A stretch of 64,000 bases of DNA from the NCBI GenBank assembly GCA_051313645.2, contig JBNRSN020000002.1:222704001-222768000 (forward strand), in the 5' to 3' direction. Under the pieces are notes generated by a model. It was not told where the DNA came from and did no database searches. It worked only from the letters and a program-made list of their open reading frames with translations. Each line of letters begins with the position of its first letter. Position 1 is the first letter of the stretch. Made by a program: the position numbers and the translations under genes. This DNA comes from Centroscyllium fabricii. Its lineage: Eukaryota. Shown in pieces: positions 5,651 through 61,965 of the stretch.

Positions 5651-5769
5651 ATAGTTGCTGTTTCTGGCGCCTAAATTATTTGTCGTATTTCTAACCAGTC
5701 TTTGGATTCCCTTTGCGGCTTCACAGAAGCTTTAATGTAATCTTATTATATCTGGTTTGTTTGTTCAAT

Positions 5770-9958: not shown

Positions 9959-10029
9959 CTTGGCAGGGGGATGGGATAGGTAGTGGAAAAGAGGGAGGTC
10001 ATAGGAAGCCAGAAACAAATGGTAGGAAG

Positions 10030-28708: not shown

Positions 28709-29023
28709 GTATCGTCAATAGTCTAATAAAACTAAAGACGCGTAGTTACCTTAACTATAGGCTTTTATTAGCTTACAACGGAGCTATGCTCCGATCGAAC
28801 ATCAGGTACCGAATGAATGGGGGCCGGTCAGTCCCCACCTATAAGGCACTCACCTGAGGGGAGGAGTTAGAGGTGTAGCTGACCTGGCCCCGCGACAGTG
28901 TCGCAATACAGGACAGTTACATCATGCACCCGACCGCTATACATACATGTAATATTGGTAACAATATTAGGGTGGTAATAAGAGTACATATAACGGTTAC
29001 CACATTCACCCCTTCTTTGAAAA

Positions 29024-32000
29024 TCAAGTCCGGCGGGGTGAATGGACAGAGCAGTTCATTATTAGCTTATCCGGCGGACGCGTCTGTCTGGAGGACCGCC
29101 GGGTGTCTGTCAAATGTTCTGGTTCCTGTAGCATCGGCGGCGCTGGAGCCGGTGGTGGTGGCGGCGGCGCTGGTGCCGGTACTGTAGGTGCTGTTGGTGG
29201 CGGTGGGTCCGAGCCCTGCGGTTGCTGCTGTGCCTGCAGCTGGTCATCCGAGTCTTGGTCCTCAGCTGGCAATGGCGGGGGCTCCGAACCATACGGTAGT
29301 GGCGGCCAGCCTCCGGTGGGTTGTGGGTCGTGTATCGGCCAGTGGTCGATATGTAGTGGCTGGAGGTGGCCGAAATATAGTGGCTGGGCAGGCTGCTGCC
29401 CGACCAGGGGCTCTGCTGTGGTGCCCCCGGTGGGCGCTAGGTCCCTGTTGGAGACGGTGTCCTCGCGCCCGTCCGGGAACTGTACGTACGCATACTGTGG
29501 GTTGGCGTGCAGCAGCTGCACCTTGTCTACCAGGGGGTCGGTCTTATGGCCGCGGACGTGCTTCCTAAGCAAGACCGGCCCCGGCATTGTGAGCCACGGT
29601 GGAAGGGCTGTCCCCGAAGTCGACTTCCTGGGGAAGGAAAAGATTAAATTGTGAGGTGTGGCATTGGTGGCCGTACACAACAGAGAGCGTATCGAGTGCA
29701 GCGCATCAGGGAGGACTGCCTGCCAACGGGACACTGGAAGGCCTGTGAACTTCAGGGCCAGGGTGACCGCCTTCCAGATGATCCCGTTCTCCCTTTCTAC
29801 CTGGCCGTTCCCAAGGGGGTTGTAACTGGTCGTTCTGCTCGAGGCAACCCCTTTCTGGAGCAGAAACTGACGCAGTTCGTCGCTCATGAACGACGCCCCC
29901 CGGTCGCTATGGATGCAGCTGGGGAGACCGAAAATAGCGAACAGCGTGGTGAAGTGTTTGATCACCGTTGCGCTCGTCATATCTGGGCAGGGGAAGGCGA
30001 AGGGGAAGCGGGAGAACTCGTCTACGACCGTGAGGAAGTACGAGTTGTGGTTGGGAGGGGGCCTTTGCAGTCCACGCTTAGACGTTCAAAGGGGCGGGTG
30101 GCCTTAATGAGATGCGCCATGTCTGGCCTGAAAAATTGGGGTTTGCACTCGGCGCAAACAGGGCACTCTCGGGTCATAGCCTTGATCTCCGTGATGGAGT
30201 AGGGGAGGCTACGGGATTTTACGAAGTGGGCAAGTCTGGTGTCACCCGGGTGGCAGAGGCGATCGTGGAGTTCCTTCAGCCGGTCTACCTGGGCACTGGC
30301 GCACGTTCCCCTGGACAGTGCATCCGGGGGTTCATTGAGTTTGCCTGGTCGGTAAAGAATGTCGTACTCGTAAGTCGAGAGCTCGATCCGCCACCGCAGG
30401 ATCTTATCATTCTTGATTTTACCCTTTTGTTTATTATTAAACATAAACGCGACCGACCGTTGGTCGGTGAGTAGGGTAAAACGCTTACCGGCCAGGTAAT
30501 GACGCCAGTAGCGTACGGCCTCCACGATGGCCTGGGCCTTCTTTTCCACTGCAGAGTGGCGAAACTCGGGTCCCTGTAATGTGCGGCAGAAAAACGCTAT
30601 GGGCCTGCCTGCCTGATTCAGGGTGGCGGCAAGGGCAAAGTCCGAAGTGTCACTCTCCACCTGGAAAGGGATGGATTCATCAACGGCGTGCATGGTCGCC
30701 TTGATAATGTCTTCCTTGATCCGGGCGAATGTCGTTTGGGCTTCTACCGACAGGGGGAAGGCGGCAGCCTTAAGGAGTGGTCTGGCCTTATACGCGAACT
30801 GGGGAACCCATTGCGCGTAATAAGAGAAAAATCCCAGACATCTCTTCAGGGCTTTGGGGTTGTGAGGAAGGGGCAGTTCCTGTAAGGGGCGCATACGCTG
30901 TGTGTCGGGGCCGAGGACCCCGTTTTCCACCACGTATCCGAGGATGGCGAGCCGATCTGTACTAAAGACACATTTGTCTTTGTTGTATGTGAGATCTAGC
31001 CGTTTCGCTTTGTCGAGGAATTTGGCCAGATTGGCATCGTGGTCCTGCTGGTCATGGCCGCAGATGGTCACGTTGTCCAGGTAGAGGAAGGTGGCCTGCA
31101 GCCCGTTCTGGTCAACCATGCGGTCCATCTCCCTCTGGAATACCGACACCCCGTTGGTCACGCCGAAGGGGACCCGGAGGAAGTGGTAGAGCCGACCGTT
31201 CGCCTCGAAGGCGGTGTACGGGCGGTCGGCTTTCCGGATCGGGAGTTGGTGATACGCCGACTTAAGGTCGATTGTGGAGAACACCTTGTATTGGGCGATC
31301 TGGTTAACCATTTCCAAGATGCGGGGGAGGGGGTAGGCATCGAGCCCGGTGTAGCGGTTAATGGTCTGGCTGTAATCGATAACCATCCGATGTTTCTCGC
31401 CTGTCTTAACTGGGCCCGCCAGGGGCTGGTGCTGGCTTCAATAATTCCCTCCTTCAGCATACGCCCGACCTCCGACCTGATAAACGTCCGATCCCCTGCA
31501 CTGTACCACCGACTCTTAGTAGCAATGGGCTTGCAGTTGGGGTCGAGGTTGGCGAACAGTGAGGGGGGGTCGACTTTCAGGGTGGAGAGGCCGCAGGCCG
31601 GGCTCCGCTTTGGGAAGAGATTTTCCCGGCTACTGACGGTGAGTGGGGGCAGGGTCCCGCCGAACTCCATTGTCAAACTCTTAAGGTGGCACTGGAAATC
31701 CAGTCCCAGTAAGACTGGGGCGCACAACTGCTTGAGTGTGTATAATTTAAAATTACTGTACACGCAGCCCTTAACTGTGAGCGTGACGGAGCAGTAGCCG
31801 GTGACGTCCGCGGTGTGGGACTGTGAAGCAAGGGAGACCTGGTGGCGCGTGGGCAGGGTCTGCAGTCCGTAGCGCTGCGCTGTATCGGGGTGAATGAAGC
31901 TCTCTGTGCTTCCGGTGTCGAACAGGCAGTTAGTGGCATGGCCGTTGACTTTAATCCCCATCATGGAATTTGATAGGGTGTGCGGCCTAGCCTGATCGAC

Positions 32001-32192
32001 TTTCGGGATGGCTGAGGCCGAAGTGTGTGTGTGTGTGTGTGTGTGGGAGCCCTCCGCTGGTTGGGGCCATACACAAGATGGCGGCGCCTGTTGTTCGCAC
32101 ATGGCCGGCCTCTGGGGACAAAATGGCGGCGCCGGAGAGTTGCACATGGCTGGCCGCTGAAGACAAGATGGCGGCGCCGGGGGGTCGCACAT
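29024..32192 (-). pseudogene. pol: Frameshifted Gypsy pol (PR-RT-RH-IN)
   Basis: FDTGS, YLDN, PFGVTNG, HSDRG, GNGQVER in ORFs 31158-32192, 30022-31386, 29024-29980. Confidence 0.9.
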
Positions 32193-33167
32193 GGCTGGCC
32201 GCTGAAGACAAGATGGCGGCGCCCGTGATTCGCACGCGGCAGGCCACTGTAGACGCGATGGCGGTGCCCGTGGTTCTCACGCAGCGGGCCGTGGCGGCTG
32301 GGTTGGCGCTGCCCGTGATTCGGGTGTCGGGGGGTCCCTCGTGCAGCTGAACGCACGTTCAGTTGTTCATGTTTAGGAGAGGGCGTTGATTGGAACGGCG
32401 ATATCCAAAATAACAGGTCAAATCAGCGTTACACGCTGACTGATGTCCTGACCTACCTACTCTGCATACTGCCGATGCACGCACATCCCGCCCATACTAT
32501 CGCTCTCACCAAGATGGCGAACAGCACGTGCCACGCCAGAAGTGGGCAGAAGTGAGGTGGCGACCATTTTTTTCTCCAAACCGTCCTTAATTGCCATGCT
32601 AAGGTGTCAACTTTCATGGCCTGACTGTTCCCAAAAAACAAGGGCCCAAATCTTTGTAGATCTTTTTAGAATCTCGAAACAGTCTCTGTTGAAATGATTC
32701 AATAATGATAACCACCTACAGAGCTCCCCTCTCTTCACACCTTCAATATTGAATTGTGCCAGTGCAGCCAGTGTGCCAGTGCAGCCTGTAGGGTTCGCAA
32801 AATTTCCTGCTTTCCCAGCCCTTGTAAAGAAAACTTACAGTAAAATGGACACATTTTACAGTGGACAAAATGGAGTCTGGGATCATATGACCACAGATGA
32901 AAGCTGGTCATTTTCTCCCCAGTAACAGGGGCCAGATGCAGTCTGTTATTTCAAAATTAGATGTACTCATAGCTCCAGAAAAGAGCATTGAATATGTATG
33001 GAGGGCCAGCCAGTAGGCCGGCTGAAATAAAGGACACTTAATTGGATAATGATCAATGTTTATTTTGGGTAAAACAGGAGGGGGAGTGGGAGCGCTTCAA
33101 AACCGCTCACGGGCAGGTACGGGCCAAACCGACCTTGCACACCACCCAGCCAAACCCCCAACAGAAA

Positions 33168-33185
33168 TAGCGACCACGGCAGGAC
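33168..33185 (+). promoter_or_regulatory. Primer binding site, tRNA-Arg(UCG)-like
   Basis: tagcgaccacggcaggac 4 nt after the LTR; resembles TGGCGACCGCGGCAGGAC, the complement of a vertebrate tRNA-Arg 3' end as recalled. Confidence 0.65.
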
Positions 33186-33238
33186 ACTGGCCACAGGCCT
33201 CTGGTGTGGTAGGCAATGGCTCAGGGGAGTCAAATGTT

Positions 33239-34974
33239 ATGGAAGAGAGGATTTCAGATTATGTGTTCAGTAAGGTGAATCTGACTAAGAAGTGGATCAC
33301 CGCTCTGTTAAAGGCTGAGTGCCCGGTGGACGCAGCAGCTAAGTGGACAGGGGGGACGGAGCCGAAGAAATCTCTCAAAGACCGTGTGGCCGTGTTGTTA
33401 TAAGAAGCAGGTACAGCTTCTAGATGGGCTCTTCGCAGCCCAAGCAGCTAGGTTAAAGAAGCTAGACCTGGAGGTTCAGGAGAAAGCTCTAGTGGAGTAA
33501 AGTTATTGGTAGCGCTACAGGCCCTCAATCAGGAGAGGGAACAGTTAATAGGGGAGTATGAGGCACAGTTGGAGTACCTGCAGTGCCAAGTCACAGAAGT
33601 CAAAGGGCATGAGTTTAGGTTACGGGATAGAAGTGCCCGCCTGACCAAGGAAGTCAGGGAACACGAGGAGAAAGTAAGGGAAGTGCAGGCCGCCTACAGG
33701 GTGGCACGCGAGCAGGGGTTTGAGGATGCAGATCACAGCTCCTGTTTGGAAGAGATACAGAAACTGAGCTGTGCCCTCCAGAAGGCAAAAGACATGGTAT
33801 GTCTCCTAAGCCCAAAGGCAGGCCAGGCAGATTTCTTGGGGAACGAGGGTAGGGCCCTTCCAACAGCCTCAGTAGTGTCGAGGGACGAACCGGTAGTGAG
33901 GAAGGAATCCCTACATCCATCACCCACCACGCCAAGCTTCGGCGAATTGTGGCACCAAGGAGAGGTGGAAGTGGTGGTGGTGCGAGCCCCGGAGAGGTCG
34001 GGAGCAGGGCCCATGTGCCCGGCCTGGCAGCAGAGGCTGGGACCACCCGTTCATGGTGAACCAGAGGGACCCCTCCAAAACCAGTTCATTGTGCCCTTCA
34101 ACACTCAGCAGCTGAGGAGTATGGTTAGCCATATCCTGAAGCTATCCCAAAAGGGAGACCCCCCGGTCCACCTCAGAGAGGTAGAGCAGGCAGCCAGCGT
34201 CAACGACTGCGATGACGCCGAACAGGCAAAAATGCTGCTATTCTCTCTGGAGAGCAGCCTCCTCCAGTCCCTCTCTGATGAGAATAAAAGGGGGCAGAGC
34301 GGGTACGAGGAGCTGAAGGAAGCCGTGTTAGAAGCCCTGGGGATGGATGAGGGAAGTCCCTTCTTCTGTGGGGAGAAGACGGTCCAGCTAGCAGGGGAAA
34401 CTCCGCAGGCTTTCGTGGACCGGCTATGGCCTGTGTACTGGAGAGCTTGTCCAGGAATGACCAACTGGGCACTCCTGCGTGGGGCACCCTGGCTCACTGG
34501 CTCCATTGCTTGGTGGCGAACAGCCTGCCGCAAGTCCGAGCAAAAGCGGAGGCATGGTTCGACCCCAAGGACCCCGGCACCACCGAGGCCGGGGTGATCA
34601 GGCAGCTAACTCTGGCCTATAAAAACAGTCGGGGAGCTGAGGCGCCCCCAGCCAAAGGGAAGGTGCACGAGGCAAGGCCCGGACCGGGTAGGAAAGAGTG
34701 GCGCCAGGAAAGGACTAATTCCCCCCTCTCACAGTTGAACTGCTATGGGTGTGGGAAGGATGGCCACTGGCGAAATGAGTGCAGGAATCTGTGGAAGGAT
34801 TCAAAGGGAAAGACTCCCACAGCCCCAGCCCAGCCGGAGGGGGCCGGAGACCGGCCCACCCAGGTCGAGATGCTTTTGGATGCCATGAGGTCATTATTGT
34901 CTGGCCAAGGGAAGGTAGCAACGGCTACCGGCGCTCTACCCTGTCAGCCCCCGCCAACCCCCAGCCCTGACTAG
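33239..34974 (+). pseudogene. gag: Gag-like gene (coiled coil, capsid-like region, CCHC knuckle), frameshifted
   Basis: Heptad-rich 33506-33800; MHR-like QLAGETPQAFVDRLW; CYGCGKDGHWRNEC at ~34741-34782. Confidence 0.8.
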
Positions 34975-36569
34975 AGCAGGCACAGCCGGTTTGACGTATC
35001 GTCAATTAATAAACAAAGACGAGTAGTTCCCTAAACGACAGGCTTTTATTAATTAAGAATGGAGCTGGTCTCCTGATGAGGTCAAGGTGAAGAATGAGCG
35101 GGGGCAGGGCAGCACTCACCTATATACTCCGACCTGAGGGGAGGAGTTAGGGGTGTGGCTGACCTGGCCTGCAATACAATACAGGTGAACCAGCAACTAT
35201 TTACAGTGGTTATTACACAATTACCACATTCACACCTGCTTTAAAAACAAGTCCGGCGGGGTGAATGTGCCTTCGGGTGAAAGAAAAGATCTATATGTAC
35301 AGGTACGCATAATCAATTAGCATTTCGTTATCAGTCTCTCCGGCGGTCGCGTCTGCCTGAGGGACCGCCGGGGTGCCAGCGATGGTGGTGCTGGTTGCAG
35401 GGCCAGGGACGAGCTCGCCGCCAACGGTGCCAGCGGTGCGGCGTCCGATCCCGGGTCGACGAACGGTGGTGTTGAGGGCCCCGGTGTGTGTATATATGGG
35501 GGCCAGTATTCGGTGGGTGGTGGCTGGTCGAGCAGAGGCTCGACCGGGGGTTCTGCCCTAGTGCTCCTGGCGGGCTCCAGGTCCCTGATCGAGACCGTAT
35601 CCTCGTGCCCGTCCGGGTATGCCACGTAAGCATATTGTGGGTTGGCATGGAGCAGGTGCACCCGTTCCACCAGGGGGTCGGTCTTGTGGCCGCGGACGTG
35701 CTTCCTAAGCAACACTGGCCCCTGCGCTGTCAGCCACAGCGGGAGTGCTGTCCCCGAAGTCGACTTCCTGGGGAAGGAAAACAACAGGTCATGAGTGGCG
35801 GTACACAACAGAGAGCGGATGGCATGGAACGCGTCTGGGAGGACATCCTGCCAACGGGAGACTGGAAGGCCTCTGGACTTCAGGCCCAGGTTGACCGCCT
35901 TCCAGATGGTCCCGTTCTCCCTTTCTACCTGGCCCTTTCCCCGGGGGTTGTAACTGGTCGTTCTGCTTGAGGCAACCCATTTCTGAAGCAGGAACTGATG
36001 CAGTTTGTCGCTCATGAACGACGACCCCCGGTCCCTATGGATGTAGCTGGGGAGACCGAAAATGGCGAACAGCGTGGGGAAGTGTATGATTACCATTGCG
36101 CTCGTCATATCTGGGCAGTGGAAGGCAAAGGGGAAGCGTGAGAACTCGTCTTTGACCGTAAGGAAATACGAGTTGCGGTCAGTGGAGGGGAGGGGGCCTT
36201 TGAAGTCCACGCTCAGGTGTTCAAAGGGATGGGTGGCCTTGATGACGTGCGCCGTGTCTGGCCTGTAGAATTGGGGTTTGCACTCGGCACAGACAGGGCA
36301 CTCTTTGGTCATAGCCTTTATCTCCGTGATGGAGTAGGGGAGGCTAGGGGCTTTGACGAAGTGGGCGAGTCTGGTGACACCCGGGTGGCAGAGGCGATCA
36401 TGGAGGGCCTTCAGCCAGTCAAGCTGGGCGCTGGCGCATGTTCCCCTGGACAGTGCGTCCAGGGGTTCGTTGAGCTTGCCTGGATGGTAAAGAATGTCAT
36501 ACTCGTAAGTCGAGAGTTCGATCCACCACCGAAGGATCTTATCATTCTTGATTTTACCCCGTTATTATT

Positions 36570-38140
36570 TTTTTTAATTCATTGATGGGATATGGGCATC
36601 GCTGGCTGGCTAGGCCTGCATTTAGTGCCCATCCCTAATTGCCCTTGAGAAGATGGTGGTGAGCCACCTTCTTGAACCGCTGCAGTCCATATGGTGTAGG
36701 TACACCCACAATGTTGTTACGAAGGGAGTTCCAGGATTTTGGCCCAGCGACAGTGAAGGAGCGGCGATACAGGTCCAAGTCAGGATGGTGTGTGGCTTGG
36801 AGGGGAACTTGTAGGTGGTGCTGTTCCCATGCGTCTGCTGCCCTTGTCCTTCAAAGTGGTAGAGGTCGCGGGTTTGGAAGGTGCTGTTGAAGGAGCTTTG
36901 GCGAGTTGCTGCAGTGCATCTTGTAGATGGTACACACTGCAGCCACAGTGCACCGGTGGTGGAGGGAGTGAATGTTGAAGGTGGTGGATGGAGTGCCAAT
37001 CAGGCGGCCTGCTTTATCCTGAATAGTGTCGAGCTTCTTGAGTGTTGTTGGAGCTGCACTCATCCAGGCAAGTGGAGAGTATTCCATCACACTCCTGACT
37101 TGTGCCTTGTAGATGGTGGAAAGGCTTTGGGGAGTCAGGAGGTGAGACACTCGCCACAGAATTCCCAGCCTCTGGCTTGCTCTTGTAGCCACAGTATTTA
37201 TATGGCTGGTCCAGTTCAGTTTCCGATCAATGGTAACCCCCAGGATGTTGATAGTGGGGGATTCAGCACTGATAATGCCATTGAATGTCAAGGGGAGATG
37301 GTTGGAGTCTTGCTTGTTGGAGATGGTCATTGCCTGGCACTTGTGTGGTGCGAATGTTACTTGCCACTTGTCAGCCAAAGTCTGAATGTTGTCCAGGTCT
37401 TGCTGCATATGGACACGGACTGCGTCAGTATCTGCCGAGTTTCGAATGGTGCTGAACAGTGTGCAATCATCAGCGAACATCCCCACTTCTGACCTTGTGA
37501 TGGAGGGAAGGTCATTGATGAAACAGCTGAAGATGGTTGGGCCCAGGACACTGCCCTGAGGAACTCCTGCTGTGATGTCCTGTGGTTGAGATGAATGACC
37601 TCCAACAACCACAGCCATATTCCTTTGTGCTAGTTATGATTCCGACCAATGGAGAGTTTTCCCCTTGATTCCCATTGACTTCAGCTTTGCCAGGGCTCCT
37701 TGATGCCTGGGGCGGCACGGTGGCAAAGCAGTTAGCACTGTTGTCTCACAGCACTGGAGACCCGGGTTCAAATCCAGCCTTGGGAACTATCTGTGTGGAG
37801 TTTGCACATTCTCCCCGTGTCTGCGTGGGTTTCCTCCGGGTGCTCCGGTTTCCTCCCACAGTCCAAAGATGTGCGGGTTAGGTTCATTGGCCATGATAAA
37901 TTGACCCTTAGTGTTAGGGGGATTGAATATGTGGGGTCACGGGGATAGGGTGGGATATGTGTCGATGTAGGCTCGATAGGGATATGGGGAGAGGGCAGGG
38001 GCGGGGTACTGGGTTTGGATGATCAGCCATGATCTCATTGAATGGCGGAGCAGGCTCGAAGGGCCGAATGGCCTACTCCTGCTCCTAGTTTCTATGTTTC
38101 TATGTTTCTATGATGCCACACTCGATCAAATGCTGCCTTG
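36570..38140 (-). mobile_element. 5'-truncated CR1/L2-group LINE inserted in Gypsy RNase H
   Basis: [34 protein letters not shown]; A-rich tail at ~36570; Gypsy sequence resumes either side. Confidence 0.9.
37708..38110 (+). mobile_element. Full-length HE1-type V-SINE
   Basis: tRNA-like A/B boxes, V-domain (gtggagtttgcacattctccccgtgtctgcgtgggtttcc), CR1-derived tail; 7-bp TSD tgatgcc. Confidence 0.95.
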
Positions 38141-39786
38141 AACATAAACGCCACCGACCGTTGGTCGGTGAGCAGGGTAACACGCTTACCGGCCAGGTAA
38201 TGACGCCAGTAGCGCACTGCCTCCACGATGACCTGGGCCTCCTTTTCCACTGCTGAGTGGCGAGTTTCGGGTCCCTGTAGGGTCCGGGAGAAGAATGCTA
38301 TGGGGCTGCCTGCCTGGTTCAGGGTGGCGGCAAGGGCAAAGTCCAAAGCGTCACTCTCCACCTGGAAGGGAATGGACTCATCAACGGCGTGCATGGTCGC
38401 CTTGATGATGTCTTCCTTAATCCGGGCGAATGCCGTTTGGGCTTCTGCTGAGAGGGGGAAGACGTCGGCCTTGAGGAGAGGTCTGGCCTTATCCACGTAC
38501 TGGAGGACCTAATGCGCGTATTAAGAAAAGAACCCTAGGCATCTCCTCAGGGCTTTGGGGTTGTGAGGTAAGGGCAGCTCTTGCAAGGGGCGCATACGCT
38601 ATGGGTCGGGGCCGAGGACCCCATTTACCACCACATATCCGAGGATAGCGAGCCGATCTGTACTAAAGACACACTTGTCTTTATTGTACGTTAGGTCCAG
38701 CCGTTTCGCCGTGTGTAGGAATTTGGCGAGGTTGGCATCGTGGTCCTGCTGGTCATGGCCGCAGATGGTCACATTGTCCAAGTAGGGGAAGGTGGCCTGC
38801 AACCCGTTCTGGTCAACGATGCAGTCCATCTCCCTCTGGAACACCGACACACCATTGGTCACACCGAAGGGGACCCGGAGGAAGTGGTAGAGCTGGCCGT
38901 TCGCCTCGAAGGCGGTGTACTGGCGGTCAGATTTCCCGATAGGGGAGTTGCTGATATGCCGACTTGAGGTCGATTGTGGAAAAGACCTTGCACTGGGCGA
39001 TCTGGTTTACCATATCCGAGATGCGGGGGAGCGGGTAGGCGTCGAGCCCGGTGTAGCGGTTAATTGTCTGGCTATAGTCGATGACCATGCGCAGTTTTCC
39101 GCCCGTCTTAACCACCACGACCTGGGCCTGCCAGGGGCTGGTGCTGGCCTCAATAATCCCTTCTTTCAGCATGCGCTCGACCTCCGACCTGATGAATGCC
39201 CAGTCCCCTGCACTGTAACGCCGACTTTTGGTAGCAATGGGCTTGCATTTAGGGTCGAGATTGGCGAACAGTGAGGGGGGGTCGACTTTTAATGTGGATA
39301 GGCCGCAAGTTGAGCTCCGCGTTAAGTTGGGATTGTCCCGGCTACTGACTGTGAGGGGGGCCAGGGTTCCACCGAAATCCATCGTCACGTTCTTCAGGTG
39401 ACACTGGAAATCCAGTCCCAGTAATACTGGGGCGCACAGCTGCTGGAGTACGTACAACTTAAAGTTGTGGTAAATGCGGTCCCTGATCGTGAGCATGACG
39501 TTGCAGTAGCCGGTGATGTCCGCCGTGTGGGACTTTGAGGCAAGGGAGATTTGGTAGCGCGTGGGCTGGGTCTGCAGTGTGTAGCACCGCACTGTGTCGG
39601 GATGTATAAAGCTCTCTGTGCTGCTGGTGTCGAACAGGCAGTTAGTGGCGTGCCCGTCCACCTTTATCCCCATCATGGAGTTGGACAAGGTGTGCGGCCT
39701 AGCCTGATCGACAGTGGCTGAGGCCGAAGTGTATGTGTGTGAGTGGGGGCCCTCCGCTAGCTGGGGCCCCGGCCGGGGCGGATGGC

Positions 39787-40131
39787 AAAATGGCCGCTCA
39801 GAAGATGGCGGCGCTGGCGATTCGCATGTGTCCGGCTGCTGTGGACAAGATGGCGGTGCCCATGGTTCGCACGCGGTCGACCGCTGTGGACAAGATGGTG
39901 GCGCCCGTGATTTGCACGCGGCCGACCGCTGTGGACAAGATGGCGGCACCCGTGGTTCACACGCGGCCGACCGCTGTTGACAAGATGGCGGCGCCCGTGG
40001 TTCACACGCGGCCGACCACTGTGGATAAGATGGCGGCACCCATGGTTTGCACGCGGCCGACCGCGGTGGACAAGATGGCGGCGCCGGGGGGGTCGCACAG
40101 GGCCGGTCGCAGTCGCGTTTGAAATGGCGGC
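39787..40131. repeat. 45-bp tandem repeat inside gag-pro, each unit carrying AAGATGGCGGC
   Basis: Motif recurs every 45 bp from ~39801 to 40071; shorter array at ~32073-32265. Confidence 0.9.
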
Positions 40132-41049
40132 ACCTGTGCCGCGTATGCAGCCGGCCTCCGCCGCACAGTTAAAGGAGATTGAGGCGCCCGCGATTTACCC
40201 CCGGCTGACCGCTGCTGGGTCGCGCTGGAACACCGTACCTGGAGCCACGGAGTGGCATCGCTGTTCTCGCAGGCCGTGCTGTTGGGTCTGGAGGTGGAGG
40301 CTGGGCTGGATTTGCACACCTTCGCGTAGTGCCCATTCTTCGCGCACCGCGCACAGGTCACATTCTTCGCGGGGCACTGCGCCCGTGGGTGCTTTCCTTG
40401 GCCGCAGAAATAGCATCTGTGCCCCGCCGGTGTCTTCGCACTCGCCGCTGCCATCGTGGGGGCCTCGGCCCGTCGCCGTGTCGCCCAGGTGTCGGGTACA
40501 GTGGGAGCCGTGATCCCCGTACGCATCCATCTTTTGAAGCACTCTGTCCACCGCGTTAGAAAGCCTTATCGCGGACTCGAGCGACAGTGTCTCCTGCTCC
40601 AGCAGCCGCTGGCGGGCCTGGTTGGACCTGAGTCCGGCCACATAGGCATCACTGATTAGGAGGTTCGCCTCTTCCTCCGCTGTCCTTGCCTTGCAGTCGC
40701 AGGCCCGTGCAAGGGCTTGGAGCGCTACTAGAAATTGTTCATTTGACTCCCAGATTCGTTGTCTTCTGCTCGCCAGAGCATGCCTGGCATAGACCGAGTG
40801 GGACGGGTGCATGTAGCAGTCCTTTAATTTCTTGACCGCTTCCTTGTAAGTCTTGAGGCCGTGGATAAAGGAGTACACCCGGCTGCTGATCCGTGATGAG
40901 AGTACCTGGAGTTTGTACTCATCACTCGTAGACTTTACGGCCTTCATGTAGGCCTCAACCAGGCCAAACCAGTGTTCAAAGTCGTTAGCAGCATCGGGTG
41001 CCTGAGGATTTATATCGAGGCGATCCGGTTTCACTGCGTTGTTCTCCAT
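40002..41049 (-). pseudogene. gag: Mag-like Gag with one frameshift
   Basis: ATG at 41049; CYFCGQGKHPRAQC and CARCAKNGHYAKVC knuckles. Confidence 0.9.
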
Positions 41050-41311
41050 GTTTTAAAAATTTAGTTAATAAAATTGACGTATCGTCAATTAATACACAAA
41101 GACGAGTAGTTACCTAAACTACAGGCTTTTATTAACTAAGAATGGAGCTGGTCTCCTGATGAGGTCAAGGTGAAGAATGAGCGGGGGCAGGGCAGCACTC
41201 ACCTAAATACTCTGACCTGAGGGGAGGAGTTAGGGGTATGGCTGACCTGGCCTGCAATACAGTACAGGTGAACCAGCAACTATTTACGGTGGTTATTACA
41301 CGATTACCACA

Positions 41312-42881
41312 GTGGCCTCGGTGATCCTTAATTTAACCGAGGTGCAGTTGCCAAAGTGATGCCCCAGGGAGACAGAGAAGTTATATCAGGCCCTCTTAAA
41401 GGACATGTTCAGATGTTTCTATGAGTTTTATATCTCCAGCGGGAATCGGGATGCGCTTTACACCACACCACACAAAGTTTTGGGTGGGACAGGGAGACAA
41501 AGAAGGGGTATTTTGGGTGATGCATTCACCGCGTTTAATACTGGGACCTCTGTAGTCAATTCGTTAGATGATGTAGAGCTGCAGACCCAGATTAATGGTT
41601 TAAAAACACAGTTTAAGGGGATTCTCATGGATGAGAATAAAGCAGTGAGTTCGGCGTTGCATGAGGACCAGGCAATGACGGTCCATTTAAAGGAAATCAT
41701 AGCGGAGTTGGAGAAGCATGCCAACACGGTAAATGCTCTCATATGGGAGGACAGGAATGCATCTGACCAAGCGGCACAGAATGAGGCATGTGTGCTGTAC
41801 GGGGTATGGTTACTGGGCGAGGGCCGTAGTAATCTGGAGGACCTGAAACAGGGTTTGGTTCCCCTCCTGGATCAGTAACAAACGCCTCGCCGCCCTCCAC
41901 CTGTATGAGAATGCATTGAGCCCGTGCCAACTCGGAATAGCCTCCGAAGCTTATCCAGTTCCCGTGGACGCTGGTCGGTCAAACCACACAGTCATGGGGG
42001 TGGTGGTTAGGATGCCGGTTATGGGAAAGGCAGCCTGATCTGCACCAGTGTACAGGGTGGAGAACATTGGAGTGATCCAAGGGGGTGCGCACATTCGTTT
42101 CGCAGCGGTCCCGCCTTACGTCATCAAGTGGGAACACGAAATGACAGGCACGGACCTTTCAGGGTACCAGAGCTGGGTAGCACACGTAATCCTGTGTCCC
42201 CAGCACTTGAATGCCTTTTTAAGACTGCAGTGTGGGTTCAGAGCTGCAGGCGCGAAGCCTATAAATTGCACCATGGAGGCGATGGCAGACAGCCATGTTC
42301 CGCCGCAGGTGGCATATATACCGGATGGGACCTATTGTGTCACCACCGGCGCGTCCCAGTACCGGCACGGACAGCATAGCTGGTGCACGGTGAGTCACAG
42401 CAGCTTCTGTTCTAAACCCCAGGCTGAGGTTCAAGTGGCCCAGGAGCGAATTGTCCCCATCCCGGAGCCCTCCACTGTCCACCTCACACTGTCCACCTCA
42501 CTGTCTGAGAGAATGTAATGGATTTGTTAGTTTGTAGCCCATTTTGGCTACGAGATTCCCCCTCTCCCTGAACATGTCACAAAACTCCTTAAAGCTGTTG
42601 TTGTTTTGCAGAAACACTTCTATACCTTTGAGCAAAAGACGACAGATATAGGGTCCAAAATATTGGACATAGTAGTTCCACCATGCTGGGACCTCTTCGA
42701 TAGCATCAAAGTCCCAACATGAATCTGGCTGGCTTTTCACATCCTGGTGTTATGCCAGCTCGGCATCGTGCTGTGCTTAGTCTGTGTGCAGTGTAGGGGG
42801 AAGGGTCGGTTCTCAAAGTTCCGAGACCACGTGACCTGGCAGGGGCACTATGAGGACGTAGAAGCATATACACCCGTGTAA
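41312..42881 (+). pseudogene. env: Envelope / class I fusion glycoprotein, N-terminally truncated, with stops and frameshifts
   Basis: Furin site RQRR (41495-41506), fusion peptide GILGDAFTAFNTGTSVVNS, HR1, Cys-rich beta region (42048-42518), HR2, TM IWLAFHILVLCQLGIVLCLVCV (~42723-42788), tail ending YEDVEAYTPV*. Confidence 0.85.
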
Positions 42882-43235
42882 ACCCTCCCCATTTTGGAAC
42901 ATTTTGTATTATAGTTTTGATTGTGTGTTTGTTATTTTTAATAAAGAATTTTTGCATGGTTGTTAATAAAGATTGCAATGTGCCAAGTGATACAGGGGTG
43001 TTGGACCCCCTCCATGCTTGGATGTATGTGAATTGATTTTTCCTTTTTAAATATGCGTGTGTGCACTACGCTCTCGCGCATTTGGGGAAGTACGTGTTTC
43101 ACGGGATATATTTGAGATAGAATTAATCACAGGGGAAGGTCGACTAGGAGGGGCCAGAAATTATTCCTCACCAGAAACAACAGGAATGATACTTAATTAT
43201 CATCAGAATGGATTATTAATTATCACAGGGGGGAC

Positions 43236-44654
43236 TGTAGGATTCACAAAATGTCCTGCTTTCCCAGTCCTTGTAAAGAAAACTTACAGTAAAATGGACA
43301 CATTTTACAGTGGACAAAATGGAGTCTGGGATCACATGACCACAGCTGAAAGCTGGTCATTTTCTCCCCAGCAATAGGGGCCTGACACAGTCTGTTATTT
43401 CAAAAGTAGATGTACTCATAGCTCCAGACAAGTGCATTGAATATGTATGGAGGGCCAGCTAGCAGGCCGACAGATACAAAGAACACTTAATTGGATAACG
43501 ATCAATGTTTATTTTGGGCAAAACATCAAAACAAGCCACTTCTATTCAACCACAGAAGTTCAGTGTTCAGGTACAAATTACACAAAGGGAGGCCGTAGAT
43601 AAGGCCATCAGAAGGAAATCGACAGTTTTACAGTCGTTTTACATTAAGTACCAGCTTTTGTTACACAGTAAGCCCGCCAAATTAAATAAAGACTAACCTG
43701 ATTTGGCGCAAGATAAGGCACTGTTCAAATTAGTATAACAGTAATGACAAGGAATGAAGCCAAACAGCAGAAACAGCAAGGACACAGGCCGAGATGCAGG
43801 CAGGCAACCATGAAGGCCAGTGCTCCGGTCCATGTGCAGACATGACCCCCGGTCCGTACTGGAAGTCTGCTCTTTTCCCTGGCCATTGCCCGTACCATAC
43901 CACAAGGCCGGGACCGAACTGGGGCCAGGTACCAAGTGGGACAGTGAGACACCTCAGTACGGACTGGAGCAAGACTAGGCCTTGCCCAGAAAATAGTGTC
44001 GGACATGACATTTTTAAAGTTAAAGAGCCGGTGACTGGGGTGGGGTTCGAATAAACGGGCCCCCAGCATTCATTCGCCAGAAGAAGTTCCATTCAGCTCG
44101 GAAGGAGGACAAGAAATTCCATTGTTTCAGTAGTCGTGAGACCATGAGGCGCCAGCCCTGAAGGATGAGAAGTTTGTGTGACACGTACGCGCTGCAGCCC
44201 TGTTGACCACGTGAGAACGGAACGCCTGAAAGACCAGAGCCAAAACTCAAAACCTTGTTTTCATTAATCCTAGGCTGGTGAGCATGAAATCTGACCCTTG
44301 GTAGTTGAACTAGGTTAGGTATAGGTACAGCGGGGTGGGAATTAAGGTTGAGGGATAGCTAAAATTGTCATTCATATCCCTCGATGTGTCATGTGCTTCT
44401 CAAACCTGTACCAATGTATAGCGATTGAATTGTTTTTACCTGTAGTGTGCTATCAATAATTTTCTTCTCATTAAAACCTTTAAGTTTGTTTGACTCACTC
44501 AAGTCGTTTGTCTACCCGTGCTTTTGCACCACCAGTGGTCTGACAATAAGCCCAGTGTCCAGAATCAGGAGAGGGAGTGGGAGCGCTTCAAAACCGCTCA
44601 CGGGCAGGTACGGGCCAAACCGACCTCGCACACCACCCAGCCAAACCCCCTACA
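43236..44654 (+). repeat. Complete 3' LTR (1419 bp) of the env-bearing element
   Basis: First ~290 bp and last ~88 bp match 32787-33163. Confidence 0.9.
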
Positions 44655-46147
44655 AGCCTTCGGTCGCCTGAGGAAGAGAGTGCTTGAAGACCAGGACCTC
44701 AAACCCGGCACTAGGCTCATGGTCTACAGAGCAGCAGTGATATCCGCCCTGCTGCATGCCTCAGAGACATGGACCATGTACAGCAGGCACCTCAAAGCAC
44801 TGGATAGGTACCACCAACACTGCCTCCGCAAGATCCTGCAAATACATTGGCAGAATATGCGCACCAATGTCAGTGTTCTTGCTCAGGCCAACATCCCCAG
44901 CATCGACGCTTTGACCACATCCAGTCAGCTCCGATAGACGGGTCACACTGTCCACATATCTGATACGAGACTCCCAAAACAAGCGCTCTACTCGGAGCTC
45001 CGGCACGGCAAGGGAGCCCCAGGTGGGCAGAGGAAACTCTTCAAGGACACCCTCAAAGCCTCCTTGAAAAATTGTAACATCCCCATCGACACCTGGGAAT
45101 CCCTGGCCCAAGACCACACAAAGTGGAGGAGAAGCATCCGGGAAGGCGCTGAACACCTCGAATCTCTTCGCTGGGAGCAAGCAGAAGCCAATCAACCCAA
45201 GCATCAAACCCAACCACCCCTTCAACCACTGTCTGCCCCACCTGTGACAAAGACTATAGTTCCCGCATTGGACTCATCAGTCACCTGCGAACTCATTTTT
45301 AATGTGGAAGCAAGTCATCCTCGGTTCCGAGGGACTGCCTAAGAAGAAGAAGAAGAATATTGAATTAGGTAGTCAAGACACAAAAATCTAAGCTCTGAAG
45401 TTAGTCTTTGGGACTTCCAAAAACACATTTCAACACCAAAAGAACTTAATATCAAGCACATACTAATGAGCATTCTGGTACACGTTGTTGGAGTCCCACA
45501 CCTTATAAGGCCTAAAATAATGCATACTGGAATTTTGAATAGAGCGAAACATCCTTGGTGGTGCAGCCATTAGTGATAATTGGTCTGAAAACTTACAATT
45601 CGGTTCTACTACTATAACAATGGTGAAACAGGACTTCAGATGCATCAGAGATTTATGTGCCTGATCCTACTGGAATTCATGGGAGCAGGCAATTAGCATA
45701 TTATTGGCAGGTTCCCACATCAGTATCGGTGCAGCTGGGGGAATCCACTAGGTGCGGGGGCAGGAATATTGAAGTGGCAAAACCAAGCGCTCAGAGCCAA
45801 CCAATCAGTCCTACCTCCATTCCTGACATCAGGATCCAAGGGATGGATGCCTAAACCACGCATCCACATGTAAAACCTCCTTGCAACAGGAAAAGGGATG
45901 GAGACCTGGTGTAACCGGGTCCTACCCCCAGTAGACGTCCCCGTCCACTCCGATAACCCCACCTGTTCATCCATATTATTGTGGAGGTTTGAGCCGAATA
46001 TTTTTGTCTTCTTTCCCTCACAGTCTACATGCAGACATTAATATTTCAAAAACATGATTATTTCTGATGCAATTAACTTATGACTAAAGGTAATGGCATC
46101 ATTCTGAGGAACTGGCTAGGCTAGATGCGCACCCACACCCCCCAATC

Positions 46148-46599: not shown

Positions 46600-48905
46600 A
46601 AATGAAGGGATCTGCTGTTGAATTAACCTTGGTGTGTTGCTGCAGTAGATGCTGTAGATCATTTGTAGTGGTCCAGGGTGGATATTGAGTCCAGTGGCAA
46701 GGACACCAATTAAGCAAACTGCTTTGTCCTGGATGATGTTGAGCTTCTTGAGTGTTGTTTCGACTTCACCCACCCAGGTAAGTGCTAAGTATTTCAGCAC
46801 AGTCCTAACTTGAGCCCTGTAGATGGTGGGAGGTACTGAGGGGTCAGGAGGTGATCCACTTGTCGCAGAATACATAGAAACATAGAAGATAGGAGCAGGA
46901 GTAGGCCATTCGGCCCTTCGAGCCTGCTCCGCCATTCAATGAGATCATGACTGATCTTTCAGATTCAGTACCGTACCCTGTCCCTGCCTTCTCCCCATAT
47001 CCCTTGATCCCTTCAGCCTGAAGAAATATATCCAATTCCTTCTTGAATATATTTAATGAACCGGCCTCCACCGCCCTTTGTGGCAGAGAATTCCACAGGT
47101 TTACCACTCTCTGAGTGAAGAAATTCCTCCTTATTTCAGTCCTAAATGGCTTTCCCCTTATCCTTAGACTGTGATCCCTGGTTCTGGACTCCCCGACCAT
47201 CGGGAACATCATTCCTGCATCCAGTCTGTCCAGGCCTGACAGAATTTTATAGGTTTCGATGAGATCCCCTCTCAATCGTCTGAACTCCAGTGAGTATAAG
47301 CCCAATCGACTCAATCTCTCCCCATACGTCATTCCTGCCATCCCGGGTATCAGCTTGGTGAATCTTCGCTGCACTCCTTCAATGGCAAGAACGTCCTTCC
47401 TCAGATGAGGCAACCAAAACTGCACACAATACTCGAGGTGTGGTCTCACCAAGGTCCTGTGGAGCTGCAGCAAGACATCCTCGTTCTTATATTCGAACCC
47501 TCTTGCTACGAAGGCCAACATACCATTTGCCTTCTTAACCGCCTGTTGCACCTGCATGCTTACCTTCAGTGACTGGTGCACAAGAACACCCAGGTCTCTT
47601 TGCATTTCCCCATCTCCCAATCTATTGCCATTCAAATAATAATCTGCCCTCCTGTTTTTGCCACCAAAGTGGATAACCTCACATTTATCCACATTATAGT
47701 GCATTTGCCATGTATCTGCCCAATCCTCCAACCTGTCCAAATCGCATTGGAGTTTCTCGACATCCACCTCACAGCATACCCTCCCACCCAGCTTTGTGTC
47801 GTCTGCAAATTTGGAGATATTACATCCAATTCCCTCGTCCAGATCCTTAATATATATTGTGAACAGCTGGAGTCCTGGGACCGATCCTTGCCGTACCCCA
47901 CTAGTCACTGCCTGCCACTCGGAAAATGACCCGTTTATTCCAACTCTCTGTTTTCTATCTGACAACCAGTTCTCTATCCAAGTCGATACCTTGCCCCCAA
48001 TCCCATGAGCCTTAATTTTGCATGCTAATCTCTTATGAGGGACCTTATCGAAAGCTTTCTGAAAGTCCAAATACACCACGTCTACTGGTTCTCCCCTATC
48101 TATTTTACCAGTTACATCCTCAAAAAATTCCAGTAGATTAGTCAAGCACGATTTACCTTTTGTAAATCCATGTTGACTCTGTCCGATCCTGTCACTGTTT
48201 TTCAAGTGTACTGCTATTACATCTTTAATAATGGACTCTAGCATTTTCCCCACTACCAATGTCAGGCTTACTGGTCTATAATTCCCCGCTTTTTCTCTAC
48301 CCCCTTTTTTGAATAGTGGGGTAACGTTAGCTACCCTCCAATCCATGGGTACTGTTCCAGAGTCTATCGAGTTCTGGAAGGTGATCAGCAATGCATCTGC
48401 TATCTCCAGGGCCACTTCCTTAAGTACCCTAGGATGTAGATTATCAGGCCCTTGGAATTTGTCGGCCTTTAATCCCTTCAACTTCCCCAACACTATATCC
48501 CTGCAAATACTGATTTCTATCAGTTCCTCCCTCTCATTCGTCCCTATGTTTCCTGACATCTCTGGGAGGTTATTTGTGTCCTCCTTTGTGAAGACAGAAC
48601 CAAAATACCCAGCCTCTGTCTTGCTTTTGTAGACATCTTGTTGATGTGGCTGGTCCAGTTCAACTTCTAGTGACTGGTGATGCCCAATATGTTGATGGTG
48701 GGGGACTAGTTAATTGTTGTGCAGTTGAAGGTCAAAGGGAGATGGCTATGCTTTGTTTTGTTCAAAGTTGTTATCCCCTGGCACTATATGGTGCGAATAT
48801 TACCTGACACTTGCCAGTCCAAGTCTGGATGTTGTCCAAGTCCTACTCTAGGTTGACATGGGCTGCTTCATTATCAGAGGAGTTGTGAATGGAACTGAAC
48901 ATTGT
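46600..48905 (-). mobile_element. Old CR1/L2-group LINE fragment (~46600-46873 + 48604-48905), split by a younger CR1
   Basis: Similar to 36900-37460; IYRAQVRTVLKY..TLKKLNIIQDKA. Confidence 0.75.
46874..48603 (-). mobile_element. 5'-truncated young CR1 (HER1-like) LINE with uninterrupted RT reading frame
   Basis: ORF 46844-48559 closely similar to 11049-12899; FADD intact; (TTTCTATG) tail; candidate TSD aatac. Confidence 0.95.
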
Positions 48906-49411: not shown

Positions 49412-50258
49412 TGTAGGGAACCTTCAAAAGTGATAATAACGTTGAGGGATGCGGAGCAAACGTAAACAGGTCTTTATTGGTTTCGATCCAGAAACGACTG
49501 AGTTACAAAAGGCACGAAAACACAAAGCATGATGGGGCTTTTGACGGACAGCCCGCAGGACAAATCAGGGACCAGAACTGTTGATCCAACTAACCAATAG
49601 GGAAACAGGGGCGGGACCAACTCCGGAATGTGGATTCTGACTCTTAGGGGAGATCGGGATGTTTCCCCCTAGTGCAGCGTTCCCCAACCGCCGGTCCGCG
49701 ACCCGGTGCCGGTCCGTGGGACATTCTTACCAGGCCGCGGACGGGTCTGTGAATCGTCGCATGCGCAGATCAATTGCCGACGGGCCGCGGCAGGGTCTGT
49801 GAATCGGCGCATGCGCCGATCATTCGCCGACGGGCCGCGGCAGGGTCTGTGAATCAGCGCATGCGCCAATCATTCGCCGACGGTTCGCGGCAGGGTCTGT
49901 GAATCTGCGCATGCGCAGATCAATTGCCGACGGGCCGCGGCAGGGTCTGTGAATCGCCGACCTAACCCGCCTCCCCTCTGCCTTTGTCAGTCACCATCGG
50001 ACAAGGAGGCGCCCCCGCTCCCGGGCTCAAATTACCGACGCACGCGTCTGTGAACGCAACCCCGAGCTCACCTGCGCCTCCCGGGAACGGAGCTGCGAAC
50101 AGCAGCCAGACGCACCTCTCCCTCGCGCCAGCACCCCCCCCCCGGTCAGTCAAAAAATCTCCGCCAGCACCCCCCTGCCCCGCGAAAAAATTGACAAGCC
50201 CAAATTGGGCCGCCGTCCCAAAAAGGTTGGGGACCACTGCCCTAGTGGCTCTGCTACA
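49412..50258 (-). mobile_element. Small solo LTR (~274 bp net) interrupted by a hAT MITE
   Basis: TGTAG...CTACA ends; TSD CTGC (49408-49411 / 50259-50262); minus-strand AATAAA at ~49474. Confidence 0.7.
49675..50239. mobile_element. hAT (Charlie-like) MITE with internal ~49-bp tandem repeat (49735-49960)
   Basis: TIR cagcgttccccaacc / ggttggggaccactg; 8-bp TSD CCCTAGTG. Confidence 0.9.
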
Positions 50259-52075: not shown

Positions 52076-53936
52076 AAGCAATTCATTTTAATTTGACCTG
52101 CTGTGATAAGTATGATGGAAGGTGTGAGTGTGGTTTTATGTGTTATTTTATAGCACATTCAGCAGTATCCTTCGGTTTCTTCTGTCGAAGATTAACTTGT
52201 TAACTCAATAACATAAGAACGCAGCACCAGATTTTCATTAAAGCTTCTGGACTGGCCTCCTTTTATTGAACAGTAGTTTCCTTTTTAGACCTGGTATGCT
52301 GCAAACTGTCCTTGTGTCTCATTTATCTGTCTGTGAGAAGTCATGTGTAACATTAATAACTTAAAAACACATGGCAAGACTTTACCCAAACTGTGTAAGA
52401 GGCATTTTCTCATTAGAACCTGCATTCCTTTCAAAGATAGGCAGGTTTCGAAATGTTCACGTTTCACTGGTGATGCATCTGCTCAAGACGCCGCAGTATA
52501 ATTTGAGTGTTCTCACCAAGCTTTTAAAGTGATGTATTTTTATCCTCTTCTTGGTTTCATCCCAAAAGCACATATTATATTGTATGCTGGGCCATCTATC
52601 CGCAGATTTTCTTTACTTAAACAGTAACCTGTTACTTAAAAAAAATTGCATTTTGCTAAACTTGATGAGAAGCCTTTGTATCCTGAGACTCTTGATACCT
52701 TTTGACATTCCTCCTGTCAACAATTTAAGTGAAAAAGTTATTTTCAGTGCAAAGTGAACGATAATGGTTTTTGCAAGTACATTTTATACCAATGTTGTGG
52801 TGTATGTACATTGTGAAATGCTTGGTTACCATTGGGCACTACTTTGTGCTGCATCAGTACTCTGCAGTACTGCGGTTCACCACTACTGTATATATGTAAG
52901 TGCGAGGAGCGCTACGAGTTAGTTCCAGACTTTACTATGCCTAGTAAACATCACCTTGAGTTGTACCTTTCACGTCGAGTCTGTCGTTATTAATCCTTGA
53001 TAGCGCGGACTAAATAATGGCGACGAGGTCGGTCGAAACCATAGCTATGTAATCGGCTACGTCGAAAAATGACAAATGTTGTTTTTTGAACCACTCCATC
53101 GACCATCAAGGCACACCCTGCATCCCTGACCAGGGAGAGGCAGCAATTCTCCAGCAGAAGGAACTCAGTCAGCCTGCACTCCAACAATGGGAGTGGAGAG
53201 GCATCTTCACTCCAGCCAACAGAAATCGGCAGCAGGAGTCAGCAGAATTCGGCAGCAGCAGCCAGCAGAAATCGGCAGCAGGCGCCAACAGAATTCGTCA
53301 GCAGCAGTCAGCAGAAATCGGCAGCAGGAGCCAGCAGGAATCGGCAGCAGCAGCCAGCAGAAATCGGGTGCCCAGCTCAACAGCGGCAGGAAGGCCACAG
53401 AGCAGGACCCAGCCCAGCAGAAGCAGTCGGACAGCGGACATCGACTCGAGGTGGGGCCAGGACAACGGCAGAGAAAGTCGTTCAGCAGGGTCGAACGAGA
53501 AGATCCACGGCGACAAAGCCAGTCACCAGAAGTGGTTGTCGAGGATCAGGGGTGGTCCTCCGGCCAGAAGAAAACATCAGCTTGCAGGTAGCGCGCAATC
53601 CTTACTAAGACCGCAGGGGGAAATCAGAGGCCCAGTGGGCGAGAGACGCGCAGAGGCGGGGAGACGCCATTTTTGGGCGGGAAGATGCCGGAAGAGATGC
53701 GCAGGGGCGGGAAAAGACGCCGGAAGAGATGTGCAAGGGTGGGAAGACACCAGAAAAGACACGCAAGGGCGGGGAAAGTCACCATCTTAGCGCGGGAAGA
53801 AATCCGCAAGGGCGGGAAGAAACCGGAAAAGAAGCAGGAAGGCGGGACAAACGTCATCTTTAGGCGGGAAAATGCCAGAAGAGACGCAGGGAGGCGGGAA
53901 AAGACGCCATCTTGACCGCAATAACAGACAGTAAAT

Positions 53937-58231: not shown

Positions 58232-58387
58232 AATTGTAAATATTATCTTTGTGTATATAGTTTTGCTTGTCCTCCCCCTACACTGACTATTGTACCGTAA
58301 AGGTTAATTAAGTGTGGAGGAATGTGGTGTATGTACATTGTGAAATGCTTGGTTACCATTGGGTACTACTTTGTGCTGCGTCAGTAC

Positions 58388-61144: not shown

Positions 61145-61965
61145 AGTACACTGCAGTACTGCGGTTCACCACTACTGTATATATGTTAGCGCGAGGAGCG
61201 CTATGAGTTAGTTCCAGACTTTACTATGCCTAGTAAACATCACCTTGAGTTGTACCTTTAACGTCGAGTCTGTCGTTATTAATCCTTGATAGCGCGGACT
61301 TAATAAATGTACATATAGAGTATGTTTAACTTTATTATTGTGATAATAGAGCCAGGTGAAATGTAGGCCAGTCAATCAACTGCAAGCTAAAATCATTCTG
61401 ATGAATAGGAAATGCGCATTTGAACTTTTTACATTGGAGTCTTCCACTGTTCCTGTCTTTACTAAACTATTTACAATAATGAGGAAGTATCAGTCAAGCA
61501 TTCGCAGGCCTCATTTAAGGAAAGCAGCACTGGATCATCTTCAATGAAGTGTTAAAAAGGAGCGAGGCCACCCATTGGTCTGAAACAATGCCCAAATTAT
61601 ATAGGAGACTACCTTTTGAGCTAAAGTTACCTCAAAAATGAGTGCCATCTGAAACATGAAGAGGGATGCTGAAGATTACTGCCAGCCTCCGAGCATGCAT
61701 TAAAATGGAAACAGTCTCCCTCAATAAGAAGATTTGCAAAACAGAGCACTTAGACATGAAGAGGAAGATAGGTAGCAGCTAAGATAAATGTATGTTTCCT
61801 GTAAATAATATTTGATAAGGGATGGAGCACTTTTCCTGTTTGGTCACCCAATGTTAGGTCAGGTATTGTGGAGCCAGATGCAGCTTAAAACTCCATCTAT
61901 TCTGCTCAACAATATGCATAACCCCAATTTAAGAAGAACTTTCTCCTCCTGGAATATAATAACAG

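Follow-up and report, generated by a model that had tools for sequence, protein, structure and literature searches.

F-type (class Ib) envelope proteins have been published for foamy viruses (PMC11468914), for lokiretroviruses (PMC7947760), since renamed lokiortervirus (PMC9040795), and for Gypsy elements (PMC13524379). Orthoretroviral Env is assigned to class Ia in the foamy virus work (PMC11468914). In the loki papers, an F-like Env is regarded as foreign to canonical retroviruses (PMC7947760, PMC9040795), and the text of the second of them finds no detectable similarity between the canonical retroviral Env and that of Loki. PMC9967133 describes the Env of the walleye viruses as being without gamma-type features. 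SnRV-like ERVs are known from elephant shark (PMC4422223) and across vertebrates (PMC6001957, PMC4977317). No published statement that the Env of the SnRV clade is F-like was found in the papers searched, which were main texts with few subscription papers among them. The word "snakehead" occurs in the main text of neither the Viro3D paper (PMC12583693) nor PMC13709493, and "walleye" is likewise absent from the former; no such statement was found in the available portions of bioRxiv 2024.03.17.585361 (one figure label only) and PMC11521997.

The window analyzed here is a 64,000-nucleotide stretch of a contig of the shark Centroscyllium fabricii. Positions 41312–42881 are the rear two-thirds of a decayed env within an LTR provirus at 32787–44654. 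The segment very probably derives from an ERV of the SnRV-like (class III / "clade Huo") grade, which is basal within Retroviridae. With SnRV and the SnRV-like ERVs of clade Huo, including CmiERV of lineage I (PMC4422223, PMC6001957, PMC12193657), the shark family shares RT motifs, a dual RNase H, an in-frame gag-stop-pol arrangement, a coiled-coil Gag with one CCHC knuckle, and an Env that aligns co-linearly from where the F2-like part begins to within the Cys-rich core. It differs from SnRV in having an Env of 783 aa, compared with a 1,134-aa stop-to-stop frame in SnRV, and an Env tail of about 30 aa, compared with 136 (PMC12193657). In addition, the N-terminal halves of the two Envs are not alignable, the LTR is 1.4 kb here, and the copy in the window is dead and has no pol. 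The accessory ORFs and complex splicing of SnRV belong to that virus itself and are not known to be defining for the clade. The locus is in itself an ordinary dead provirus; its value lies in comparison.

Anatomy of the locus and its open relatives

The order LTR-PBS-gag-pol-env-PPT-LTR was recovered together with a target duplication, pol being missing at this locus and present in sister copies (Table 1). The LTR pair diverges by K2P 0.073 over 377 nt. This corresponds to a poorly bounded age of about 17 My at a mammalian rate or about 165 My if, as PMC4422223 assumes, the shark rate is ten times lower. The PBS is complementary to host tRNA-like loci. When four of these were scanned, one was called as tRNA-Arg(TCG), one was returned as undetermined and two gave no call. 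A 21-mer spanning the gag stop and the pol start has 113 exact matches in the genome, compared with none for the control. Outside the provirus, ARAGORN called a tRNA-Tyr at 32376–32462 on the reverse strand, which is atypical in sequence and probably spurious or repeat-derived.

Table 1. Features of the provirus and its env remnant, in window coordinates
Feature	Position	Strand	Basis
Target-site duplication, left copy, 4 bp	32783..32786		Identical 4 bases outside both LTRs; right copy 44655–44658
5' LTR, ~1 kb internal deletion relative to 3' LTR	32787..33163	+	Two blocks aligning to 43236–43523 and 44566–44654
Primer-binding site, probably tRNA-Arg	33168..33185	+	Exact matches to LTR end plus PBS genome-wide: 71; control 0
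gag: coiled coil, capsid-like region, CCHC zinc knuckle; stops and frameshift	33239..34970	+	56% and 44% identity to gag of the pol-bearing sister subfamily
pol start codons, in frame after the gag stop; remainder of pol missing	34971..34990	+	Same flank in copy L033
Ty3/Gypsy insertion	34991..41311	-	238-nt LTRs, K2P 0.043; interrupted by LINE pieces
F2-like segment (strand, Cys, helix), stop at 41357	41312..41494	+	Model, motif positions, match to open copy
Furin-type cleavage site RQRR	41495..41506	+	Sole R-x-[KR]-R in open copy
Putative fusion peptide	41507..41566	+	Place behind the cleavage site; low-confidence model region
HR1 and following helices	41570..41848	+	Model helices 118–135, 152–176 and 182–210 mapped onto the window
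Beta/Cys-rich core (F domains I–III), frameshift near 41860, stop 42036	41865..42480	+	Model strands 243–411, mostly pLDDT 64–91
HR2	42570..42674	+	Model helix 447–481
Trp-containing membrane-proximal stretch and TM helix, stop at 42720	42678..42788	+	Hydropathy 2.54 in open copy
Short cytoplasmic tail, terminal YxxPhi, env stop	42789..42881	+	Motif positions and tail comparison
Polypurine tract	43227..43235	+	LTR/provirus anatomy
3' LTR, 1,419 nt, TG...CA	43236..44654	+	LTR comparison

The Ty3/Gypsy insertion that adjoins the env segment has no clean target duplication, and 1.9–2.3 kb of the host provirus is gone beside it, as judged against three copies of the same subfamily. The front third of env was lost via this insertion with its adjoining deletion. 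The window env accordingly has no signal peptide and is without about 265 N-terminal residues.

A first-pass annotation of the window had read a class I fusion protein across several lesions, and all of the motifs that it quoted are present in the order given, in two forward frames from 41321 to 42881. The first frame carries VILNLTEVQLPK at 41321, YQALLKDMF at 41384, RQRR and, at 41843, LKQGLVP. SWISNK (41865), VVVRMPVM (42000), VYRVENIGV (42048), HR2 (42573–42662) and the TM (42723–42788) follow in the second, which ends with YEDV at 42849, YTPV at 42867 and a stop codon at 42879–42881. Apart from the stops and the frameshift listed in Table 1, there is a disturbed patch at about 42470–42530. 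Compared with one natural open frame elsewhere in the genome, the three main pieces are 79%, 78% and 73% identical and follow the same order, so the read-through across the lesions is real. With the signal peptide missing and several breaks in the frame, the locus cannot make a fusogen, and it is dead.

Relatives were sought by searching one env piece against the 7.2-Gb genome. The first look gave 5,148 candidates, a figure that is not a copy number, and 150 of these were scored; the window itself excepted, they are 77–90% identical to the query. Twenty loci were fetched, 15 of which belong to a subfamily A (85–92% DNA identity to the window env) and five to a subfamily B (about 75%). Single open frames spanning all of the pieces were found in both, with lengths of 589 aa in A and 788–789 aa in B, the latter giving 783 aa from the first Met. 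The frames that are separate in the window therefore do occur as one ORF in other copies, and the protein is longer than the roughly 520 aa first proposed. Open B copies also have a signal-peptide-like start and, before the F2-like part, some 230 further residues.

Both tail motifs named at first, YEDV and YTPV, are present in the window. Only the second belongs to a conserved feature: among the 20 best copies, 14 tails were readable, and 12 of these keep the second tyrosine, nine with a full YxxPhi. YEDV is exact in one of the 14 and was rejected as a conserved motif.

Predicted fold of the Env

Residues 235–760 of an open copy were modeled from 35 aligned sequences. The model has a pLDDT of 62 and a pTM of 0.43, with residues 72–176, the region of the fusion peptide and HR1, below 50. 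It runs from strands and a helix through the cleavage site to three long helices; a beta core, about 237 residues in length, follows, and then HR2 and the TM. Cleavage site, fusion peptide, HR1, HR2 and TM are present in that order, and the spacer between HR1 and HR2 is formed by the beta structure. In the class Ia orthoretroviral TM subunit, the heptad repeats are joined by a short loop.

Foldseek returned 244 matches in the PDB at E<=0.001, the best being hPIV3 F (3.3e-11), with TMq <=0.43. In a VIA search of 48,161 chains, ranks 1–16 were all paramyxo/pneumovirus F or foamy Env (Z 11.4–6.0), and the first unrelated row had a Z of 5.2. RSV F was aligned over 296 residues with a Z of 11.3 and an rmsd of 6.0, and the foamy prefusion Env over 274 residues with a Z of 8.0 and an rmsd of 5.1. 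Identity in the top structural alignments is 8–16%. The alignments with F and foamy Env extend over model residues 11–417 and span the cleavage site; at moderate model confidence, both the N- and the C-subunit contribute to the F-type core. A viral structure library also gave matches to lispivirus glycoproteins, baculovirus F and feline foamy Env, and the top ESM Atlas cluster was Fusion glycoprotein F0 (0.94, 207 shared features). Class Ia TM is absent among the fold matches listed; such lists do not test absence.

None of the PDB sequence searches, run with a window piece, an open copy and two profiles, returned a significant match; measles F0 appeared only at E 1.3. No Pfam fusion family was matched by the env pieces, by the 35-member alignment (no Fusion_gly) or by SnRV Env. 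As an exception, one C-terminal relative outside the 35-sequence alignment matches Baculo_F (E 0.0011).

The structural matches support a class I Env with the paramyxo/pneumovirus-F-type (class Ib) layout, as modeled. The layout with a long beta/Cys spacer proposed in the first-pass annotation is supported by Foldseek, VIA and ESM Atlas, and the predicted fold is related to known class I fusogens, matching both F and foamy Env. The fusion peptide has the position expected behind RQRR; as to its character, it is only moderately hydrophobic and lies outside the six top hydropathy windows. The F layout had been set against a retroviral one, and that contrast proved misleading: the Env is retroviral, with a homolog of SnRV Env lying in an LTR provirus.

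The shark-family Env shares with F of hPIV3, PIV5, RSV, HMPV and measles the succession of F2, cleavage site, fusion peptide, HR1, a beta-Cys core of about 240 aa, HR2 and TM. It differs in its extra N-terminal domain of about 230 aa and in being encoded by an LTR provirus, where a separate attachment gene is absent. Foamy Env is likewise a retroviral Env on the F scaffold; there, however, a receptor-binding domain lies between the subunits and the N terminus carries a membrane anchor (PMC11468914). The extra domain of the shark family is N-terminal, after the signal-peptide-like start, a placement that resembles that of the coronavirus spike.

Among the predicted Envs of BFVD, those of the walleye epsilonretroviruses WEHV-1 (E 3.2e-10) and WDSV (3.7e-6) match the model, although at 1,159–1,317 aa they are much longer than the shark-family Env. 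Their Pol is of epsilon type. By these model-to-model matches, exogenous epsilonretroviruses may also have a class Ib Env.

The N-terminal domain, which is missing from the window, is rich in Cys and Trp (copy L025, 6438–7070). It had no match in the PDB. An Ig-like signal was given by the Atlas at 0.80, a value reached by a third of shuffled proteins, and by a V-set match at E 0.045 in two of 35 relatives (P0139, P0147). An Ig-like fold is a weak lead from these sequence signals.

The Env of the active virus was a type I membrane protein of 783 aa, in which the signal peptide and the N-terminal domain, probably serving attachment, preceded the F-protein scaffold. A furin-type cut at RQRR is predicted to yield an N-subunit that forms part of the F core, together with a C-subunit beginning with the fusion peptide. 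By analogy with F and foamy Env (PMC11468914), the protein would probably have formed a trimer, inserted the peptide and zipped HR2 onto HR1 to fuse the membranes. Intact relatives are likely to be fusogens. An SnRV env frameshift mutant fails to spread in cells (PMC12193657), which indicates that the Env homolog is needed for the spread of SnRV.

Position among retroviruses and rival origins of the env

The evidence from RT and Pol comes from the sister subfamily B and not from the copy in the window. Pol of a B copy comprises protease, RT, a Ty3-type tether, a second RNase H and integrase, and the dual RNase H was recovered in copy L026 as RT_RNaseH (2.5e-15) and RNase_H (1.8e-10). RT trees were quick searches without bootstrap in which Loki and foamy rows were not included. 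The split between retroviruses and Gypsy has an SH-aLRT of 100, and the B RT falls on its retroviral side (109 rows; 38 of them with a longer region). The B RT forms a group with Pol of coelacanth and frogs (SH-aLRT 83), while SnRV is placed on a neighboring basal branch (support 82–94); no joint clade was recovered. Rows that are presumably ERV-L-like also lie near the B RT. In the PDB, the RT matched those of gammaretroviruses and foamy viruses best, with Ty3 ranking lower. All four pol-bearing copies examined have pol in the reading frame of gag beyond a stop, as SnRV does.

An alignment of the env profile with the C-terminal half of SnRV Env (hhalign) gave 274 co-linear columns with E 4.9e-5, a probability of 68% and 20% identity. 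Its score was 44.9. By comparison, 40 shuffles reached at most 19.3, the reversed sequence 18.5, SnRV Gag 20.3 and the N-terminal half of SnRV Env 15.2. On this alignment, the F-type fold might be extended to SnRV's own Env.

The values of 20% and 68% are low enough to leave some room for the alternative that the F-type env is not the SnRV grade's own but was acquired independently, either from a mononegavirus or through recombination. Retroviruses often swap their Env (PMC9967133), and the best structural matches are mononegaviral F, ahead of foamy Env. Nevertheless, homologous Envs are present in sharks, skate and frogs, SnRV has a co-linear homolog, and no mononegaviral protein was identified among 39 sequence matches, 15 of which were checked by name. 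Capture is therefore considered unlikely.

The family also resembles lokiretroviruses in its gag-pol-env order, dual RNase H, F-like Env and occurrence in aquatic vertebrates, and a lokiretrovirus env, which would carry that lineage into cartilaginous fish, is a rival reading of the segment. The F-like Env of Loki bears an RxKR site, and a dual RNase H is present in its Pol (PMC7947760); both features are found here, and the top Pol matches come from frogs, coelacanth and turtle, which are Loki host groups. This reading was rejected on comparison of the RT. The Loki rows in Dataset S3 of PMC7947760 have a W-P-M/V and (C/L/M/T)PFG(Y/L) pattern, whereas the B RT is of SnRV type, its LPQGF...QYVDD agreeing with the SnRV row and differing from the 24 Loki rows (motifs compared by eye). 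It is 45% identical to SnRV RT. The SnRV row of that dataset equals row P0021 of our tree, again by eye. Moreover, Loki was positive in none of six chondrichthyan genomes in the supplement (Fig. S1) of PMC7947760, and the family Env aligns with SnRV Env. A Loki origin is thus very unlikely.

The family lies on the canonical-retrovirus side, and its Env, homologous to that of SnRV (an unclassified orthoretrovirus), has an F fold as modeled. A tentative and doubtful extension is that the F-type (class Ib) Env might be the ancestral retroviral Env, surviving in foamy viruses, loki, the SnRV grade with the present family, which is abundant and was recently active in an elasmobranch, and the walleye epsilonretroviruses. 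The class Ia (HIV/MLV-type) Env would then be a later replacement in some orthoretroviral lineages, and the SnRV grade would have added a spike-like, possibly Ig-like, attachment module before the F core. Against this extension stands PMC9967133, in which the walleye Env is described as distinct and as having developed more recently. Given an F fold in an SnRV-grade family and the matches to walleye Env, which type of Env came first is testable with existing sequences.

Spread and selection of the family, and neighboring repeats

Between subfamilies, dN/dS of Env is 0.10–0.13, although dS of 1.4–1.8 is near saturation there. Within B it is 0.12–0.19 and within A 0.25–0.39, and the window pieces give 0.30–0.44 against A copies. 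The copies were chosen for open frames, CpG decay can inflate dS, and pairwise values take in the viral phase before integration. Read with these limits, the ratios indicate that purifying selection acted on env during the spread of the family. The pattern is consistent with spread by reinfection followed by decay; the copy in the window is pol-less, lost the front of its env next to the later Gypsy insertion and decayed thereafter.

The values below 1 for the window pieces could also be taken as a sign of a co-opted, syncytin-like host gene, a possibility raised in the first-pass annotation, and the full-length open relatives P0115 and P0119 are annotated as genes in other species. At this locus, however, the signal peptide is missing, the frame is broken by three stops, a frameshift and the disturbed patch, the setting is a provirus, and there are thousands of candidate copies. 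Co-option of the window locus is highly improbable, and a co-opted protein here is refuted by an open frame that is truncated and broken instead of preserved. An errantivirus-type Ty3/Gypsy env, or a part of the adjoining Gypsy insertion, is hardly credible: Gypsy elements do widely carry an F-type env (PMC13524379) and a Gypsy LTR adjoins the segment at 41311, but that element is on the opposite strand with the env outside its LTRs, and the RT linked to the family env is retroviral with a second RNase H, not a Gypsy-clade RT with a single one.

Subfamily B is the younger, all 150 best-scoring RT matches being 95–100% identical, and 15 of 20 loci picked by RT carry the family env within 9.9 kb, 14 of them co-oriented. 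Many of these B copies have an open pol frame exceeding 1,300 aa, and several loci have open env frames. A whole RT was found within the 9.9 kb fetched at none of the 15 A loci, a count limited by nested insertions. In three A copies (L021 4863–5384, L024 5027–5479 and L033, reverse, 5343–5700), pol is reduced to remnants and gag and env are kept. At least two different internal deletions lie behind these remnants, and such pol-less copies with gag and env suggest non-autonomous spread. On contigs C69, C856 and C1411, equal-scoring env matches recur at regular spacing, which suggests amplification inside larger duplicated blocks.

The closest named relatives of the Env are skate, sawshark and catshark proteins with 61–83% identity, and more distant ones, at 20–38%, come from other sharks and frogs. 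The family represents a large, partly young lineage of enveloped retroviruses in a cartilaginous fish. Long open Env relatives, including those from bamboo shark and frogs (P0115, P0119, P0139, P0146), are candidate young ERVs or co-opted genes. Three shark gene models (P0002, P0003, P0134) fuse env pieces to Niban1-like, CDHR5-like or FBXO15 sequence, as annotation chimeras or through exonization. In a skate Env model (P0001), HR1 is joined directly to the HR2 region and the whole beta core is missing, reflecting a deletion or a spliced gene model.

The rest of the window holds further repeats. A young Gypsy element on the reverse strand (24258–28707) has an open gag-pol frame of 1,278 aa and LTRs that are 97.6% identical, and is apparently nested in another Gypsy LTR. 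Gypsy copies related to the insertion beside env lie at 28709–32300 on the reverse strand, with 83–85% identity over pol, and at 1–800. On the forward strand, an LTR pair (162 nt, 96%) at 52856–61306 flanks a Gypsy gag-pol with LINE interruptions near 56500–56870 and 58312–61000. LINE copies with endonuclease and RT and a shared 3' tail are found at 9934–12997, 13178–16430, 36996–38120 and 46867–48905; we assume these to be of CR1/L2 type. Tandem arrays with units of about 25, 50, 23 and 88 nt occupy 20380–20810, 49683–49982, 53215–53398 and 63405–63826, respectively, and an exact duplicate of 84 nt is present at 49265 and 50198.
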